NCBI GenBank assembly: GCA_044226725.1 | Contig: JBGAGM010000002.1 | Coordinates: forward strand, 115,819 to 179,818 | Direction of reading: 5' to 3' | DNA: 64,000 bases | Source: Ferruginibacter sp. | GTDB lineage: Bacteria; Bacteroidota; Bacteroidia; Chitinophagales; Chitinophagaceae | Shown here: piece after piece, positions 25,412 through 31,676 of the stretch | How the letters are laid out: each line of letters opens with the position of its first letter | Position numbering within the stretch: the first letter of the stretch is position 1 | Program-made: the position numbers and the translations under genes | The notes under the pieces: generated by a model | What the model was told of the DNA's origin: nothing | Seen by the model: only the letters and a program-made list of their open reading frames with translations | The model's database searches: none

Positions 25412-26269
25412 ATGTTCGCACAGATTCAAAAACAACAGGAAAACAAAAGAGTGCAGTTAATAAATAGTTCATTACAAAATCAGCCCATTAATACAAAGCC
25501 TTTACAGCTGCGCAATAACAGCACCGAAGCGGCTGTTCAAAGGAAACTGCAGGAAGTGACAAACAAGAGTGTGCAGGTACGGCAATTGAAAAAATTACAG
25601 GCCATGGTCGATTGCAGCAGACAGGTGAAACAAATGAAGGATTTGCAGGTACTGGCGAATGAAATTACACATAACACAGATCGGCCCGGTCAAATCAATA
25701 AAGAAAAACCTCTGCAACTATATACATATCAAAGGGGAATAAATCAGTCGGTGACCCTGAAGAGTACAAAGACCAATAATAAGAGTGTCACTTTTGATAT
25801 CTGCACATTCAATCAGGTACATTACGATAAGGGAGATAAAAAGCAAAGCGGCTCAGCAACAGGTAATGCTGACTGGAAAGGTTGGCTGATAGATAATGGC
25901 ACGAATAACAATGCCACACAACTGCACGTGGTGAACATGGAATGGGGGGGACTGGGTGGCGCAAAAGACGGGAATATTGCACCAGGATCGCAAGCCCTGA
26001 ACGGAAAGCACAAGAGCCCCGAGGGTATGTATAAAAATTTGTTCGACGGCAATGATAAAGCCAAGGCCGATATTACTTACAAGTGTGCGTTCGATAAAAA
26101 TGAAGTAGCAGGATATAACGGACAAACAATTGGGAAAGATGTGCCCATCAGCGATCCCGACATCTATTGCTCTATTAGTTCCGACGATAAAGCGGGCAAA
26201 GTTTTTGGTGAAGATTGGGTGGTGATAGGTAGTCACGCAAAGGGTATGGTCATAAGGGACGGAGGTTAA
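25412..26269 (+). CDS. Candidate eCIS cargo A: shared N-terminal leader plus a His-Me-finger (non-specific nuclease-like) C-terminal domain
   Basis: Leader block RKLQEVTNKSVQVRQLKKLQAMVD sits at aa 44-67. The C-terminal QLHVVNMEWGGLGG...NIAPGSQALNGKH resembles the H...N...N beta-beta-alpha-Me pattern; compare the Serratia-type nuclease segment remembered as roughly NITPQ...LNQG. Confidence 0.5.
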   Translation: MFAQIQKQQENKRVQLINSSLQNQPINTKPLQLRNNSTEAAVQRKLQEVTNKSVQVRQLKKLQAMVDCSRQVKQMKDLQVLANEITHNTDRPGQINKEKPLQLYTYQRGINQSVTLKSTKTNNKSVTFDICTFNQVHYDKGDKKQSGSATGNADWKGWLIDNGTNNNATQLHVVNMEWGGLGGAKDGNIAPGSQALNGKHKSPEGMYKNLFDGNDKAKADITYKCAFDKNEVAGYNGQTIGKDVPISDPDIYCSISSDDKAGKVFGEDWVVIGSHAKGMVIRDGG

Positions 26270-26443
26270 CCTGATATGAGAAAGATTTAAACGAGTAATC
26301 ACCTTTTATTGACGGGCATTATTCTAAAATTCAATCCCATTAGGAATGCTTTGTGAAAAAACGCCGTTACATTTGTTGGCAGCAGCCTGTTTGTTCCATT
26401 CAAACCCTGACATACAAGTTTAACCGGATTGAACCTCCCATTT

Positions 26444-27661
26444 ATGAATACGCACACTGATAAAATATCCAAAAGCGATTCTGCTTCATCAATATCCTCT
26501 GTCAATCAAAACAATGACCCGCAAAAAAAACAACTAAAAAGTTACAGGCCGGAAGCACTTAAACAAAGAAAAATACAGGAAATCATCAATGCCAGTGAGC
26601 AGGTAAACCAGGCAAGGTTCATTCAATCAATCGTTAATAATAAAAGTATAAAGCAAGTAAGAACAACAGAGGTTAGTAAAACTGCGCCTGTTGTACAAAG
26701 AACACCGAAAACATGGGAAACTAACGATGTGATTGCCAGAGCCCTTGCCCTGGAAAGAAGCGGGATTACAGAAAGTGGCAGTACCTGGGAAAAAATAAAA
26801 ACAGCCATTAATAATTACATAGCCTTTGGCCGCGACCAGTATCAGCCATTATATAATAGTGCAAATCATGTCGACCTTATATTTTCAGCAAGAACCGGAA
26901 AATTAAATGCCATCAAACTACTTATTACCAAATGGTACACTGACCATCCCATAAGGCCCTGGAACGGAGATAAAGTAAATAATATTCGGGGCATATTGCC
27001 TGAGCTGGAAAACACGATCAGAGATGAGGAAGAAGATATTATTGGCGAAAGATTTGCAAATAAGTTTTTAGTCGAAAGGCCGCCATTGGTTATTCCGCCT
27101 GAATTATCTGATGGTGTTGCGCTACAGGTTGGCAACGCAGCAAAGGCATTAAAACTTCATCAGAACTTTAATAATAATCTTCGTTTCCGGTATACAGGGG
27201 TAGGAACACCGCCTGAAGTTGGCCTTGCAGCACACCAGGGCGACTGTGGTACCCTGGCAAGGATATATATTGCTGTTGCCAATAACCTGGGTATTCCTGC
27301 TGTACTGGCAGACAGGCCCGGAAAACAACTGGTGGCGGCACAACCAATCAAAGGACGTTCCACAACAGGCAACACACATGACCAGGGCGCCTGGTATTTT
27401 CAGCAACATTTTTGGGCAGTAGCAGCCGGTACCAACTATGATATATTATTTATGCAAACCCCGCCTCCTGCTGCTATTGTATCAAACGGATCAGCCGTTT
27501 ACAGAGGTATTACTTATTACACTTTCCCGGATAATCGTTGTGTGATCGAACCTTTTGAAAAAGCTAAGTTCGGAGACCCGTCAGTTATTAAGGGTGAAGG
27601 TCGTGTTTTTGCTGATGCTGCAGCTACGCAACTGTTCATTGACGGACATATTGCCGGTTAA
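26444..27661 (+). CDS. Candidate eCIS cargo B: shared leader plus a transglutaminase-like cysteine protease/deamidase fold
   Basis: The ATG at 26444 gives MNTHTDK, as in cargo E. Leader block is RKIQEIINASEQVNQARFIQSIVN, with junction APVVQR. The C-terminal HQGDCGTLARIYIAVANNLGIPAV...QQHFWAVAAGTNYD fits a transglutaminase-core Cys/His/Asp arrangement. Confidence 0.55.
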   Translation: MNTHTDKISKSDSASSISSVNQNNDPQKKQLKSYRPEALKQRKIQEIINASEQVNQARFIQSIVNNKSIKQVRTTEVSKTAPVVQRTPKTWETNDVIARALALERSGITESGSTWEKIKTAINNYIAFGRDQYQPLYNSANHVDLIFSARTGKLNAIKLLITKWYTDHPIRPWNGDKVNNIRGILPELENTIRDEEEDIIGERFANKFLVERPPLVIPPELSDGVALQVGNAAKALKLHQNFNNNLRFRYTGVGTPPEVGLAAHQGDCGTLARIYIAVANNLGIPAVLADRPGKQLVAAQPIKGRSTTGNTHDQGAWYFQQHFWAVAAGTNYDILFMQTPPPAAIVSNGSAVYRGITYYTFPDNRCVIEPFEKAKFGDPSVIKGEGRVFADAAATQLFIDGHIAG

Positions 27662-29571: not shown

Positions 29572-29612
29572 TAGGGCTCTTTAAAATTTAAACATGGGTA
29601 TATAATTAATTA

Positions 29613-31676
29613 ATGAACACCCACACAGATAAAACAAGCGATACCAGCAGCAATGCTGTTGCTAATGCTGTGACTTTGAAGCAGGGTGCAGAGTATGAGG
29701 GCATTCAATTGAAAGATGACCGTCCCGAAACGGTCGCCCAAAGAAAAATACAGGAGGCTGCTAACAACAGTGAGCAGGCAAATCAATTAAAAGCCATACA
29801 GGCATTAGCTAATGGCAGCATGCAGGTAAAACAATTTAGAGCTGTACAAGCAGTGGTGAATGATCATACACCCAATTCAAATCGACATAAAGCAATTAAA
29901 GAAACCGTACAGGAAAAATCTAACCCTGTGCAAAGAAAATTGCAGGCCCAGGCAGACCCTGGAGAAAATAATTCCGGTCTGCCTGACAATTTAAAATCAG
30001 GCGTTGAGAACATCTCAGGTTATAGTTTAGATGATGTGAAAGTGCATTACAATTCTGATAAGCCGGCACAATTGAATGCCCATGCATATGCCCAGGGAAC
30101 TGATATACATTTAGCAAGTGGGCAGGAAAGGCATCTGCCTCATGAAGCTTGGCATGTGGTACAGCAGAAGCAGGGAAGGGTAAAGCCAACGGTGCAGATG
30201 AAGGGTGATATAGCTGTAAATGATAAAGCGGAATTGGAGACAGAAGCGGATGTAATGGGCAGGCAAGCTGTTGATATAAAAACACTACCTGTAGTTCAGC
30301 CTAAAGATGGAATTACGGCAGGTCACGAATCAGTTGCAAGTAAACAGGATAAAAGCGAAGGCAGTTTACCCGTGGTGCAAAGATTAGTAGGCTTTGAATT
30401 TGAGACCGGGTGGTATGTAGATTTTCAACAGCCTGTTGGTTTCGATGATATGGGGCAAATACCTCAACCTGTTCCGTTCAAAAAAAAAGATGTAGTAAGT
30501 CATACCAACCATGATGGGTTTAGAATGGAGGCAGATGAAGCTGAAGAAGGGCGCAGCGAGCTTGAGTTTGTAGTGAGGCCCCCGGTAGCTGAAAGCTTTG
30601 AAGGAAAGAACCGATTGGATGCAATAATGACAAATATGGAAGTTATTACTGGTGAGTTACTTGCAAAATTCGGGGCATCATTTAGTTTAGATGAAGTAAC
30701 CGGAAATGAATATGATGAGTCAACAATTGTAACACCCAGGGATGCCCAAATGAAAGCCGGCCCCCAAACAACCACAGCAGTGAAACTTGAAATGATACCC
30801 AACATACTGGGTAAAGGTATGCCCGAGCAGCCTCCTCAAAACCCGGCATTTTATGGTTTGGCAAAACTTATCGGGCAATATGTAGATCGTGGCGCATCAG
30901 AAGGAGCACCAATGTCATATCCAAAAATAATGGCAGAGCCTCTTTTGGCCCGAACTGACTTTGTTGGCCTTTTTGCTTTGATAGAACCGGAACGCAGACA
31001 ACATTATATAGCTAATCCTGATGATTGGGTATCAGATGTGTTACAGGCTGCAGGACTTGAGGCAGGAATTGCAGACCGAGATTTGCTTCACAGGGGAGTT
31101 GTAAGTGATAATGACAGTGATGAACACATGCGTCTGCGGCTTCAGATTCACAATTTCAGGAACGAACCGGATCAGCACGTTTTAGATGCCCAGGTGGTTG
31201 CTGCTACCCAAGCCTTACAAAACTACCAGTCTCCGCAAGGATTCAAAGAAAAAATCCTGTCTAAATTAAGAAACGATCCCACGCTTGACGACTTGGGTGC
31301 CATACAGGAAAGATTGCTCCGGGATAGAATGATACTCCAAGAAGAACATCAGCAATGGGAAGATGAACGTAACCAGCTTATACAACAAAAGCAAGCACTG
31401 GAAAGACATGCCGGGTTCACTGTGAGACAATGGCTTGTAGACATTCTTGCAGGAAATGATAGAATTACCGGCATCAATGATGCAGAATCAATGGGAGAAT
31501 TTGGTCAGCGTACCGAAGCCGTTGGTCAGGGAGGAGATGAAACCGCTGGTATATTTGAATGGCGGGGAGACCAAACAACAAAGATACCGCCTGGAGAATG
31601 GCGGGATTATGCTCTTGCTTTTATGACTCGTATCCTTGCCTTACACGGACACCAGGAACAAGATGGGCAACAATAA
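29613..31676 (+). CDS. Candidate eCIS cargo E: shared leader, DUF4157 domain and an unknown C-terminal domain of about 430 aa
   Basis: The protein starts MNTHTDK, with leader RKIQEAANNSEQANQLKAIQALAN. The DUF4157 core reads GLPDNLKSGVENISGYSLDDVKVHYNS...AYAQGTDIHL...HEAWHVVQQKQGRV. A second junction, LPVVQR, immediately precedes the C-terminal domain (VGFEFETGW...). Confidence 0.65.
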   Translation: MNTHTDKTSDTSSNAVANAVTLKQGAEYEGIQLKDDRPETVAQRKIQEAANNSEQANQLKAIQALANGSMQVKQFRAVQAVVNDHTPNSNRHKAIKETVQEKSNPVQRKLQAQADPGENNSGLPDNLKSGVENISGYSLDDVKVHYNSDKPAQLNAHAYAQGTDIHLASGQERHLPHEAWHVVQQKQGRVKPTVQMKGDIAVNDKAELETEADVMGRQAVDIKTLPVVQPKDGITAGHESVASKQDKSEGSLPVVQRLVGFEFETGWYVDFQQPVGFDDMGQIPQPVPFKKKDVVSHTNHDGFRMEADEAEEGRSELEFVVRPPVAESFEGKNRLDAIMTNMEVITGELLAKFGASFSLDEVTGNEYDESTIVTPRDAQMKAGPQTTTAVKLEMIPNILGKGMPEQPPQNPAFYGLAKLIGQYVDRGASEGAPMSYPKIMAEPLLARTDFVGLFALIEPERRQHYIANPDDWVSDVLQAAGLEAGIADRDLLHRGVVSDNDSDEHMRLRLQIHNFRNEPDQHVLDAQVVAATQALQNYQSPQGFKEKILSKLRNDPTLDDLGAIQERLLRDRMILQEEHQQWEDERNQLIQQKQALERHAGFTVRQWLVDILAGNDRITGINDAESMGEFGQRTEAVGQGGDETAGIFEWRGDQTTKIPPGEWRDYALAFMTRILALHGHQEQDGQQ

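Follow-up and report, generated by a model that had tools for sequence, protein, structure and literature searches.

Five co-oriented genes (A-E) adjoining a complete extracellular contractile injection system (eCIS) operon share an N-terminal leader that would most likely serve as a packaging or loading signal, the best-supported reading of our analysis. We put at roughly 0.7 the probability that A-E are eCIS cargo and that the leader is an ATPase-dependent loading sequence, to which DUF4157 is optional and behind which cassettes can be swapped. This reading draws on homology, architecture, genomic context and a cassette swap that are all observed in the genomes; recognition of the leader by the ATPase and loading of the cargo would follow by extension from experiments on AlgoCIS and PVC.

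In this scenario, A-E would be effector proteins of the adjacent eCIS, each opening with a constant leader, some 75-90 residues long, in which a probably disordered tip (MNTHxDK...) precedes a conserved core (DNRPEAxAQRKLQE) and one to three amphipathic helical repeats (NNSxQVxQLKAxQxMA); a short P-(V/I)-(V/I)-Q-(R/K) junction often comes next, and an interchangeable effector domain last. [quoted passage not shown] DUF4157 would be an optional extra module, present within the array only in E. The array may behave like polymorphic toxins, recombination in the constant leader permitting effector cassette exchange, and other leader-tagged cargo genes may sit far from the machine as 'orphans'.

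What argues for a loading signal is that the leader forms a constant module, placed strictly at the N-terminus of hypervariable proteins, that it lies close to an eCIS ATPase here and at several other loci, that about half of its family lacks DUF4157, and that AlgoCIS offers a precedent. There, Cgo1 and Cgo2 are no longer loaded once the NTD is deleted, whereas deletion of DUF4157 does not abolish loading, the ATPase activity of Alg15 is needed for loading, and the loading sequence (NTD plus DUF4157) brings foreign proteins into the tube (Ericson 2026 preprint, 10.64898/2026.05.27.728243).

A putative cargo array beside an eCIS operon

The array lies at 25412-31676 (+) of the window (the whole 64,000-nt stretch of DNA analysed), next to the operon on the minus strand (Table 1). 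The ORFs are arranged as the earlier note had described, five co-oriented genes converging on the ATPase end of the operon, with the stop codon of the ATPase gene 49 nt from the end of E. The gaps between A-E measure 159-174, 163-169, 127 and 41 nt, the ranges being set by start codon choice, and none of the four holds a plus-strand ORF of at least 60 aa, which bears out the claim that no immunity genes are lodged there.

Table 1. Features of the window, with module boundaries of the cargo-like proteins
Feature	Position (nt)	Strand	Details
Cargo gene A	25412-26269	+	285 aa; leader residues 1-87 (nt 25412-25672)
Cargo gene B	26444-27661	+	405 aa from likely ATG 26444; ORF opens at TTG 26429; leader residues 1-74; PVVQR residues 82-86 (nt 26687-26701)
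Cargo gene C	27831-28781	+	316 aa from likely ATG 27831; ORF from 27825; divergent leader residues 1-83; PVVQR residues 75-79 (nt 28053-28067)
Cargo gene D	28909-29571	+	220 aa; leader match residues 16-80
Cargo gene E	29613-31676	+	687 aa; leader residues 1-88 (nt 29613-29876); PVQR residues 105-108; DUF4157/eCIS_core (PF13699, E = 3e-10) residues 123-188 (nt 29979-30176), HEAWH at residue 177; PVVQR after DUF4157, residues 253-257 (nt 30369-30383); C-terminal domain ~430 aa
AAA+ ATPase of eCIS operon	31726-33087	-	453 aa; Walker A residue 249; Walker B glutamate residue 308 (E308)
Rest of eCIS operon	33078-52955	-	
CIS tape measure	33078-37292	-	
Baseplate proteins	37297-44897	-	
gp25	44911-45474	-	
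Spike	45644-47443	-	
Tube proteins	47447-49275	-	
Sheath	49328-50884	-	
Pvc16_N	52383-52955	-	
Stand-alone DUF4157 protein	56297-56824	-	175 aa; PF13699, E = 4.6e-9; no effector domain
PF13699 protein	57579-61070	-	
PF13699 protein	61109-63076	-	

The ATPase occupies the Afp15/Pvc15/Alg15 position; its best PDB relatives are p97/Cdc48, and its homologues, 65-98% identical, include named matches in several Bacteroidota genera. The closest solved relative of the sheath is that of SalCIS (9R9H, E = 7e-139), followed by AlgoCIS (7ADZ).

Beyond the leader, the C-terminal part of A has no match in Pfam, NCBIfam or PDB. B carries a transglutaminase-like papain-fold domain (nt 27134-27301; Transglut_core, PF01841, which passes the curated cut-off with E = 2e-5), and PVC-secreted toxins include Tox-TGase (Zhang 2012, PMC3482391). 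The C-terminal domain of C, with HEQHH at residue 215, has no PDB match. That of D recurs in protein P0055 and in the second gene of another locus (L080); a catalytic role of its HEGMH motif is improbable, as L080 has HDGMH there. For D, AF2 gave no usable model (pLDDT 36.6).

A constant leader on variable proteins

Among A-E, BLASTP aligns the N-terminal 90 residues (E down to 5e-17) and detects no pairwise similarity past residue 90 (best E = 0.5), in keeping with the earlier view that the proteins are unrelated downstream of the leader. The shared block does lie at nearly the same residue position, at R44 in A and R42 in B, with D and E in the same register. Read from their likely ATGs, B begins MNTHTDK and C begins MNLYTDK. 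An HMM built from 133 outside leaders, none of them at least 60% identical to any window protein, matches all five N-termini (E, 1.1e-30; A, 4.9e-19; B, 2.2e-16; D, 7.6e-14; C, 9e-10) and none of the other 434 of 439 six-frame window ORFs, even at E <= 10. Since this HMM matches C and no ORF outside the array, the leader copy of C, previously termed degenerate, is real.

Near-invariant residues of the leader are M1, D6, K7, D35, R37, Q43, R44, K45, Q47, E48, N51 and S53, and the leader of A contains two NxSxQVxQLKxLQ repeats. The leader is hydrophilic (GRAVY -0.77 to -1.02; 22-41% Q/N/S/T). For residues 1-125 of protein E, AF2 predicts coil at 1-37 and, with moderate confidence, helices at 38-51, 54-68 and 70-84; the pTM of 0.26 suggests that the leader has no compact fold.

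A leader profile search against 1.84 billion representatives returned 1,950 matches at E <= 1e-3 (497 at E <= 1e-10), mostly from Bacteroidota and also from Cyanobacteria, Proteobacteria and Planctomycetota. Judged by these sequence matches, the leader defines a large family that has no name, spans several phyla and numbers about 1,950 protein clusters. The proteins behind the best 150 matches are 103-1361 aa long, and nearly all of them align from residue 1. Pairwise identity in the family averages 57% over the leader, 70% over DUF4157 and 12% over the C-terminal part.

DUF4157 and the junction motif

PF13699 is present in 48 of the 112 top leader matches. Most of the remaining 64 are without any Pfam match, and a few have an RNase, EndoU, NS_2 endonuclease, deaminase, calpain or transglutaminase domain. 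The 102 leader ORFs from genome loci divide similarly, 49 with DUF4157 and 53 without. By these domain counts DUF4157 is optional across the leader family, about half of which lacks it. The assertion that DUF4157 is confined to E is true of the array but not of the window, which encodes three more PF13699 proteins on the minus strand. The 175-aa one shares the DUF4157 subtype of protein E and differs in its N-terminal region (EEEEPxQAKF / LQGKF..VQRK repeats). Protein E, the 175-aa protein or both could act in trans for the cargos that lack DUF4157. Thus, while a packaging or loading signal remains the preferred interpretation, the further proposal that it works without DUF4157 cannot be concluded here.

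The junction motif P(V/I)(V/I)Q(R/K) occurs 168 times in the family, as opposed to 24 +/- 5 times in shuffles, and peaks directly past the leader (residues 81-100) and directly past DUF4157 (residues 201-240); the module boundaries of B, C and E are marked by PVVQR or PVQR. Perhaps, though we consider it unlikely, the leader acts chiefly as a pro-domain or processing module that keeps the toxins inactive in the producer, with a DUF4157 metallopeptidase cutting it off at the junction motif, in cis in E and in trans from E or the 175-aa protein. A loading role may coexist with such a function. The enrichment and position of the motif would fit this scenario, as would the stand-alone DUF4157 gene, the prediction that DUF4157 is an autoproteolytic releasing peptidase (Zhang 2012, PMC3482391) and the gaps without immunity ORFs, since inactive toxins would explain this absence. 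However, A and D have no junction motif after the leader, and roughly 40% of the family has none between residues 60 and 160. Moreover, mutation of HExxH left the toxicity of Cgo1 and SalCgo1 unchanged, AlgoCIS cargo is still loaded without DUF4157, and cleavage is unreported.

Genomic association of the leader with eCIS

Enrichment of the leader beside eCIS loci, which the earlier note had anticipated, is weaker than expected, yet the idea is not refuted. Only 7 of 79 independent leader loci, Cyanobacteria, Nitrosomonas and Desulfobacter among them, have eCIS genes within 10 kb, the other 72 lying farther off; by our own estimate, about 1% of randomly chosen genes in an eCIS-positive genome would lie next to the eCIS. 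The ATPase, detected in six of these seven loci, lies about 0.1-3.5 kb from the leader gene. Orphan leader genes do sit in genomes with an eCIS: all five leader-bearing strains that could be cross-checked are listed as having one, namely Rhodonellum psychrophilum DSM 17998, Derxia gummosa DSM 723, Algoriphagus aquimarinus DSM 23399, Nitrosomonas sp. Nm51 and Desulfobacter vibrioformis DSM 8776 (Geller 2021, PMC8213781).

Seven loci from other species were also sampled via ATPases 69-84% identical to that of the window; two are not complete eCIS clusters, one being an orphan ATPase and the other lacking baseplate genes. A leader match within 10 kb of the ATPase, and a weak one, is found in only one of the seven, and two encode DUF4157 cargos whose N-terminal region is a different one. 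These results lend no support to a simple code of one leader for one ATPase. At four sampled eCIS loci, the 10 kb around the ATPase contain neither a leader gene nor a DUF4157 gene. These four loci, and the fact that about 90% of leader loci are not beside eCIS genes, would also be expected if the leader served another export or trafficking route, either another secretion system or a step inside the target cell after delivery, and its proximity to eCIS were incidental. This strikes us as quite improbable. No Sec-type hydrophobic segment was found in the leader, the T9SS C-terminal sorting domain that the genome's real T9SS substrates possess is missing, and the leader family reaches phyla without T9SS. 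The neighbours of 20 orphan leader loci include no recurrent family and no other secretion apparatus. Furthermore, eCIS occurs in every checkable strain, and about half of the family has the eCIS-specific DUF4157 directly after the leader. A leader copy on a Fulvitalea plasmid has no eCIS within 20 kb.

Cassette exchange at the end of the leader

In a comparison of 22001-38000 with sister strain L081, the sole non-collinear stretch is 29843-31718 (+), with flanks 95.7% and 97.1% identical. Its left edge is codon 77 of gene E, inside the end of the leader, and the other edge falls in the intergenic gap; at the position of E, the sister strain encodes a 481-aa leader protein without DUF4157. The sister strain has exchanged the gene E cassette, with the break at the leader end. 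Such a breakpoint is also what one would see if the shared 5' region were mainly a DNA homology block for cassette exchange without a peptide signalling role. This explanation is very hard to sustain, as the conservation is at the protein level and extends across phyla and codon usages. The window copies, moreover, are only 29-44% identical as protein, making them poor recombination substrates for each other.

Comparison with known systems

Read as a loading sequence, the leader follows the same logic as MIX, FIX and RIX of the T6SS (e.g. PMC10435454), N-terminal markers on polymorphic effectors with many orphans; the machine differs and there is no sequence relationship, so the likeness is one of analogy only. 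DUF4157 polymorphic toxins likewise join a constant N-terminus to highly variable C-terminal toxins (PMC3482391; PMC8213781; Danov 2024, PMC11297309), and the PVC-metallopeptidase/DUF4157 toxins occur as several paralogues per genome, often without immunity genes, with a repertoire of transglutaminase-like, nuclease and deaminase domains. In those three studies, however, the constant part is DUF4157 itself, whereas here it lies upstream of DUF4157 and, in four of the five genes, occurs without it. The available portions of Zhang 2012, Geller 2021 and Danov 2024 do not describe a sequence-defined leader upstream of DUF4157.

Cargo loading in PVC and Afp also needs N-terminal signals (Jiang 2022; Kreitz 2023; Steiner-Rebrova 2023). 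The signals of PVC (Pdp1, Pnf) and Afp18 are hydrophilic, transferable tags dependent on a Pvc15-type AAA ATPase, properties that the array leader may share. They span 20-50 residues with no conserved sequence reported, unlike the array leader with its 75-90 residues, strong consensus and internal repeats.

The closest parallel is AlgoCIS of Algoriphagus machipongonensis (Xu 2022, PMC8894135), in which the concept of a loading sequence, with a required NTD and a dispensable DUF4157, is already published and hence not new. The NTDs are compared here by description. That of AlgoCIS is described in the 2026 preprint as system-specific, not conserved and disordered, in contrast to the array leader with its ~1,950 clusters, 50-57% identity across phyla and predicted helices. 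The array also differs in having five cargos, four of them without DUF4157, rather than two that both carry it, and in facing the operon convergently instead of forming part of it. Nevertheless, both are Bacteroidota eCIS with cargo genes (Cgo1 and Cgo2 in AlgoCIS) beside an AAA+ ATPase, four other Algoriphagus genomes contain members of the leader family, and in both systems the cargos share a hydrophilic N-terminal region, differ in their C-terminal domains and lack immunity genes. Where DUF4157 is present it follows the N-terminal region, and protein E has exactly the NTD-DUF4157-CTD order of AlgoCIS cargo.

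Results

Five cargo-like genes with a common leader adjoin a complete eCIS operon

The minus-strand operon beside the array encodes a complete contractile injection system, with sheath, tube, spike, gp25, baseplate, the tape measure CIS_TMP and Pvc16_N. The five plus-strand cargo-like genes, A to E, are co-oriented and converge on its ATPase end, where 49 nt separate the end of E from the ATPase stop codon, and the blocks that the earlier note had quoted as shared are confirmed in the translations at the residue positions it named. Its claim that the gaps within the array are too small for immunity genes also holds: they measure 41-174 nt, and an ORF scan found no plus-strand ORF of at least 60 aa in them. 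Consensus promoter and terminator scans of the array returned sites no commoner than in shuffled sequence. The ATPase, which is highly conserved across Bacteroidota, is single-ring and Cdc48/p97-like; its Walker A lies at residue 249 and its Walker B glutamate is residue 308. Among solved sheaths, the one from the Salmonella enterica subsp. salamae eCIS (9R9H, E = 7e-139) comes closest to that of the window, followed by AlgoCIS (7ADZ). At the left of the window stand three large surface proteins (385, 811 and 2176 aa) that are unrelated to the leader finding; the T9SS domain Por_Secre_tail in the 385-aa and 811-aa proteins and the SdrD_B repeats in the 385-aa and 2176-aa proteins confirm a Bacteroidota host.

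Features of the array, the eCIS operon and their surroundings in the window
Feature	Position	Strand	Remarks
Three surface proteins	6874-17833	-	385, 811 and 2176 aa
dapA-like gene	24335-25216	-	flanks array on left
A	25412-26269	+	ORF call
B	26429-27661	+	ORF call; likely ATG at 26444
PVVQR in B	26687-26701	+	junction motif
C	27825-28781	+	ORF call; likely ATG at 27831
PVVQR in C	28053-28067	+	junction motif
D	28909-29571	+	ORF call
E	29613-31676	+	ORF call
PVQR in E	29925-29936	+	junction motif
PVVQR in E	30369-30383	+	junction motif
AAA ATPase	31726-33087	-	eCIS operon; 3' end faces array
CIS tape measure (CIS_TMP)	33078-37292	-	eCIS operon
Two large baseplate proteins		-	eCIS operon
gp25	44911-45474	-	eCIS operon
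Spike	45644-47443	-	eCIS operon
CIS_tube and two gp19-type tube proteins	47447-49275	-	eCIS operon
Sheath	49328-50884	-	eCIS operon
Pvc16_N	52383-52955	-	eCIS operon
Stand-alone DUF4157/eCIS_core protein, 175 aa	56297-56824	-	same DUF4157 subtype as E; no effector domain
177-aa ORF	57049-57582	-	4-nt overlap with end of deaminase gene; candidate immunity gene
1163-aa protein	57579-61070	-	classical-subtype DUF4157; C-terminal PF14424 deaminase toxin domain
655-aa protein	61109-63076	-	classical-subtype DUF4157

An HMM built from 133 leaders of other organisms, excluding anything at least 60% identical to a window protein, matches E (1.1e-30), A (4.9e-19), B (2.2e-16), D (7.6e-14) and C (9e-10), while the other 434 of the 439 six-frame ORFs in the window give no match to it even at E <= 10. 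The likeness among the five leaders is therefore far beyond chance, and it extends to the copy in C that had been described as degenerate. No relationship remains among the five proteins beyond residue 90 (best BLASTP E = 0.5), as had also been proposed.

Within the array, PF13699 (formerly DUF4157, now named eCIS_core in Pfam) is found in E alone, at residues 123-188 with HEAWH at 177. Neither the Pfam search nor a custom DUF4157 HMM detected it in A, B, C or D, and the array taken together therefore does not qualify as a group of DUF4157 proteins. The claim that only E carries the domain is correct for the array but not for the window, since three further PF13699 proteins, all lacking the MNTHxDK leader, are encoded beyond the operon. 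B carries a transglutaminase-like core by Pfam search, whereas A, C and D, like the C-terminal part of E, have no match in Pfam or NCBIfam and no significant PDB match by sequence search. HEQHH occurs at residue 215 of C and HEGMH at residue 136 of D. We considered D as an HExxH metallopeptidase and rejected this assignment: a close homologue (L080) reads HDGMH, with aspartate in place of the glutamate, so that the motif of D is probably not a zincin active site. The AF2 model of D, from an alignment of two sequences, was too poor to use (pLDDT 36.6).

The DUF4157 proteins beyond the operon begin differently. In the stand-alone 175-aa protein, which may act in trans, the N-terminal region consists of EEEEPxQAKF and EEEKALQGKFTPVQRK (LQGKF..VQRK) repeats, and akin repeat regions precede DUF4157 at two ATPase loci from Mucilaginibacter (L084) and Pedobacter (L087). 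The 1163-aa and 655-aa proteins have in common the N-terminal motif IQPKLS.N.P.D.YEQEADA.A, unlike the leader. With leader, repeat-type and IQPKLS-type N-termini, the putative cargo of the locus thus falls into at least three N-terminal classes.

The leader defines a polymorphic protein family

Among 1.84 billion representative proteins, a profile of the five window leaders has 1,950 matches at E <= 1e-3 and 497 at E <= 1e-10. Of the best 150, nearly all align from residue 1, and the proteins are 103 to 1361 aa long. The consensus is MNTHADKTQENKSQSVAN..SQ.QS..ESTFQFVDNRPEA.AQRKLQE.ANNSPQV.QL.A.Q.MANNSPQ.KQ..QLQ.MADN, with 12 nearly invariant positions (M1, D6, K7, D35, R37, Q43, R44, K45, Q47, E48, N51 and S53). 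Across family representatives with an overall identity below 50%, the leader averages 57% pairwise identity, DUF4157 70% and the C-terminal part 12%, which is the signature of a polymorphic toxin family. PF13699 is present in 48 of the 112 best profile matches; a few of the other 64 carry a ribonuclease, EndoU, NS_2 endonuclease, deaminase, calpain, transglutaminase or kinase domain, and most have no Pfam match. The leader ORFs in genome loci divide similarly (n = 102; DUF4157 in 49, absent from 53).

The leader itself is covered by no Pfam or NCBIfam model, its profile has no match in the PDB, and no leader match was found in IMG/VR viral contigs. A word-indexed protein search returned one match for the five window leaders and, for 35 leaders, only fragments of at most 161 aa. 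A text search of a library of papers found no mention of the strings MNTHADK, MNTHTDK, AQRKLQE or ANNSPQV. One family member (P0120) has 498 aa, the length of Cgo1, a cargo of AlgoCIS. In the SalCIS cargo SalCgo1, HExxH lies at residues 150-154, about its place in typical leader-plus-DUF4157 proteins, so that this cargo too may begin with a leader about as long.

The leader is hydrophilic and often followed by a recurrent motif

The leaders are strongly hydrophilic (GRAVY -0.77 to -1.02) and rich in Q, N, S and T. AF2, run on residues 1-125 of E with a 68-sequence alignment, predicts low-confidence coil for residues 1-37 and helices at 38-51, 54-68 and 70-84 (pLDDT 75-85), each coinciding with one conserved block or repeat; the pTM of 0.26 suggests that there is no compact fold. 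Could such a leader serve another export route? We consider this unlikely: there is no Sec or T9SS signal, the family extends to phyla without T9SS, and a Pfam search finds no Por_Secre_tail in A-E, though it does in the window genes at 6874-8031 and 8804-11239. Moreover, 20 leader loci that lie away from eCIS genes have no secretion genes in common.

In 143 family members the pattern [PASTG][IV]{1,2}Q[RKM] occurs 168 times against 24 +/- 5 in shuffles, a seven-fold excess, with peaks at residues 81-100, just after the leader, and 201-240, just after DUF4157. This junction motif, a short P(V/I)(V/I)Q(R/K) stretch, marks the boundaries between leader and domain and between DUF4157 and C-terminal domain, and it may serve as linker, cleavage site or recombination joint. 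These statistics lend appeal to a scenario in which the leader is a pro-domain that DUF4157 cleaves at the junction motifs. It is an attractive one and compatible with loading, but A and D lack the motif, as do about 40% of family members, and HExxH mutations have no reported effect on toxicity.

A cassette was exchanged behind the leader

A sister strain (L081, a Logan assembly) has an ATPase 98% identical to that of the window and the same five-gene array. Within 22001-38000 of the window, the DNA of the two is collinear at 95.7% and 97.1% identity except at 29843-31718 (8417-9993 in the sister strain, reverse-complement). The left breakpoint falls where the leader of E ends, at codon 77, and the right one in the gap before the ATPase gene. 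In the slot of E the sister strain encodes a 481-aa protein that keeps the leader, has a different C-terminal part and lacks DUF4157, so that its array is free of DUF4157 within the visible stretch. Hence an effector cassette has been exchanged behind a retained leader. One might suppose that the leader matters purely as a block of DNA homology for such exchanges, but this does not fit its conservation at the protein level and across phyla.

Leader genes are enriched beside eCIS loci but mostly orphan

Scanning one genome per species gave 231 confirmed leader matches, of which the best-scoring 80 (79 distinct loci) were analysed; A. machipongonensis and the window's own genome lie outside these 80. 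The 79 loci are mostly from Bacteroidota, with about 20 from Cyanobacteria, Gamma-, Beta- and Alphaproteobacteria, Desulfobacterota, Planctomycetota and Rhodothermales, and their leaders are 52-86% identical to a consensus-like query. eCIS genes lie within 10 kb in seven of these best 79 (L001, L014, L021, L036, L053, L066 and L068). An ATPase was detected in six of the seven, with the leader gene about 0.1-3.5 kb from it, and L001 has seven leader matches directly downstream of the ATPase. By our estimate, chance would put a gene of an eCIS-positive genome next to eCIS genes in about 1% of cases, and on this basis leader genes are enriched there (binomial p about 1e-5, by our own calculation).

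Most leader genes are nevertheless orphans, away from eCIS genes, including a copy on a Fulvitalea plasmid. The neighbours of 20 orphan loci include no recurrent family and no other secretion apparatus. At the level of genomes, five strains with leader loci could be matched to published tables, and eCIS are listed for all five, in a survey that found eCIS in only 1,249 genomes (Geller 2021, PMC8213781). The strains are Rhodonellum psychrophilum DSM 17998, Derxia gummosa DSM 723 (eCIS on a different scaffold), Algoriphagus aquimarinus DSM 23399 (two eCIS), Nitrosomonas sp. Nm51 and Desulfobacter vibrioformis DSM 8776. eCIS-positive genomes reportedly make up about 2% of those in that survey.

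Seen from the eCIS side, linkage is weak: among seven loci of other species with ATPases 69-84% identical to the window's, only the Mucilaginibacter one has a leader match within 10 kb, itself weak. The idea of a loading signal survives the test set in the earlier note, enrichment of leader matches next to eCIS loci, but with a weaker outcome than foreseen. The Mucilaginibacter and Pedobacter loci have DUF4157 cargos with other N-terminal regions, so that this ATPase clade is used with several N-terminal classes, of which the leader is one. Two of the seven are not complete eCIS clusters. At L082 (10001-11371, an Algoriphagus sp. MAG), an orphan ATPase 84% identical to the window's has nos, sulfatase and oxidoreductase genes as neighbours, and no eCIS structural gene occurs within 10 kb of it. 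The compact cluster at L085 (2756-11365) lacks baseplate genes and reads Pvc16_N, sheath, two tube proteins, DUF5908, spike, PAAR, an 83-aa CIS_TMP fragment and ATPase; it may be a degenerate or rearranged eCIS. In three related eCIS loci (L083 11458-18069, L086 11561-18158 and L088 11539-18082) the AAA ATPase is followed immediately by a conserved trio, namely a TrkA_N or unknown protein, a TIR_2 protein and an nSTAND1-WD40 protein, and there is neither a leader nor a DUF4157 gene within 10 kb.

Discussion

Why proteins with unrelated C-terminal parts should begin alike is best explained if the leader is a loading sequence for the neighbouring machine, a reading to which we give a probability of roughly 0.7. 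From the observed homology, architecture, context and exchange we infer that the leader of A-E would be recognised and the cargo threaded into the neighbouring eCIS. The earlier note had envisaged a loading signal that works without DUF4157; its first half stands as the best explanation, but the second is less secure, since other proteins of the window could supply DUF4157 in trans.

The concept of an N-terminal loading tag with optional DUF4157 and an AAA+ loader is already published. In AlgoCIS of Algoriphagus machipongonensis, the cargos Cgo1 and Cgo2 reside in the tube lumen and have a common disordered N-terminal region (NTD) followed by DUF4157 (Xu 2022, PMC8894135). Deletion of the NTD abolishes loading while deletion of DUF4157 does not, loading needs the AAA+ protein Alg15 with an intact Walker B glutamate, and NTD plus DUF4157 brings beta-lactamase and Cre into particles (Ericson 2026 preprint, 10.64898/2026.05.27.728243). 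N-terminal signals and Pvc15 are likewise needed for PVC and Afp cargos. The eCIS papers considered here call the loading signal not conserved or system-specific. We found in them no description of a sequence-defined, cross-phylum leader family, of frequent leaders without DUF4157, of orphan leader loci, of the junction motif or of a breakpoint at the leader end.

A more tentative proposal, which we hold to be rather doubtful, is that the leader is a sequence-specific cargo tag of one eCIS lineage, conserved across phyla, and thus the eCIS counterpart of MIX, FIX and RIX of the T6SS. If so, it would pick out thousands of effectors, of which the DUF4157 marker would miss about half and most would be encoded at a distance from the machine. 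The junction motifs around leader and DUF4157 would then be cleavage sites of the DUF4157 peptidase, which could remove the tag after loading or injection, in cis or, as a stand-alone protein such as the 175-aa one, in trans.

eCIS are being engineered as protein-delivery devices, with cargo selection as a bottleneck. A leader HMM would reveal eCIS effectors without DUF4157, orphans included, and the leader would offer a defined peptide for the study of recognition by the AAA+ loader. For the window, sequence analysis points to an annotation of five putative eCIS effectors, one a transglutaminase-like toxin, in a polymorphic array that shows signs of a recent exchange of cassettes.

How does the array compare with known systems? 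Like the AlgoCIS cargo genes, it adjoins the AAA+ ATPase gene of a complete eCIS operon, and its proteins begin with a region common to the cargos of one system before the C-terminal domains diverge; the likeness to Cgo1 (A3HTB0) and Cgo2 (A3HTA9) drawn here is one of architecture. Compared with DUF4157/eCIS_core toxins, only E has PF13699 with HExxH, whereas A-D do not. The array and its family nevertheless resemble these toxins in their polymorphic C-terminal domains, in the toxin Pfam domains of family members and in array gaps free of ORFs.
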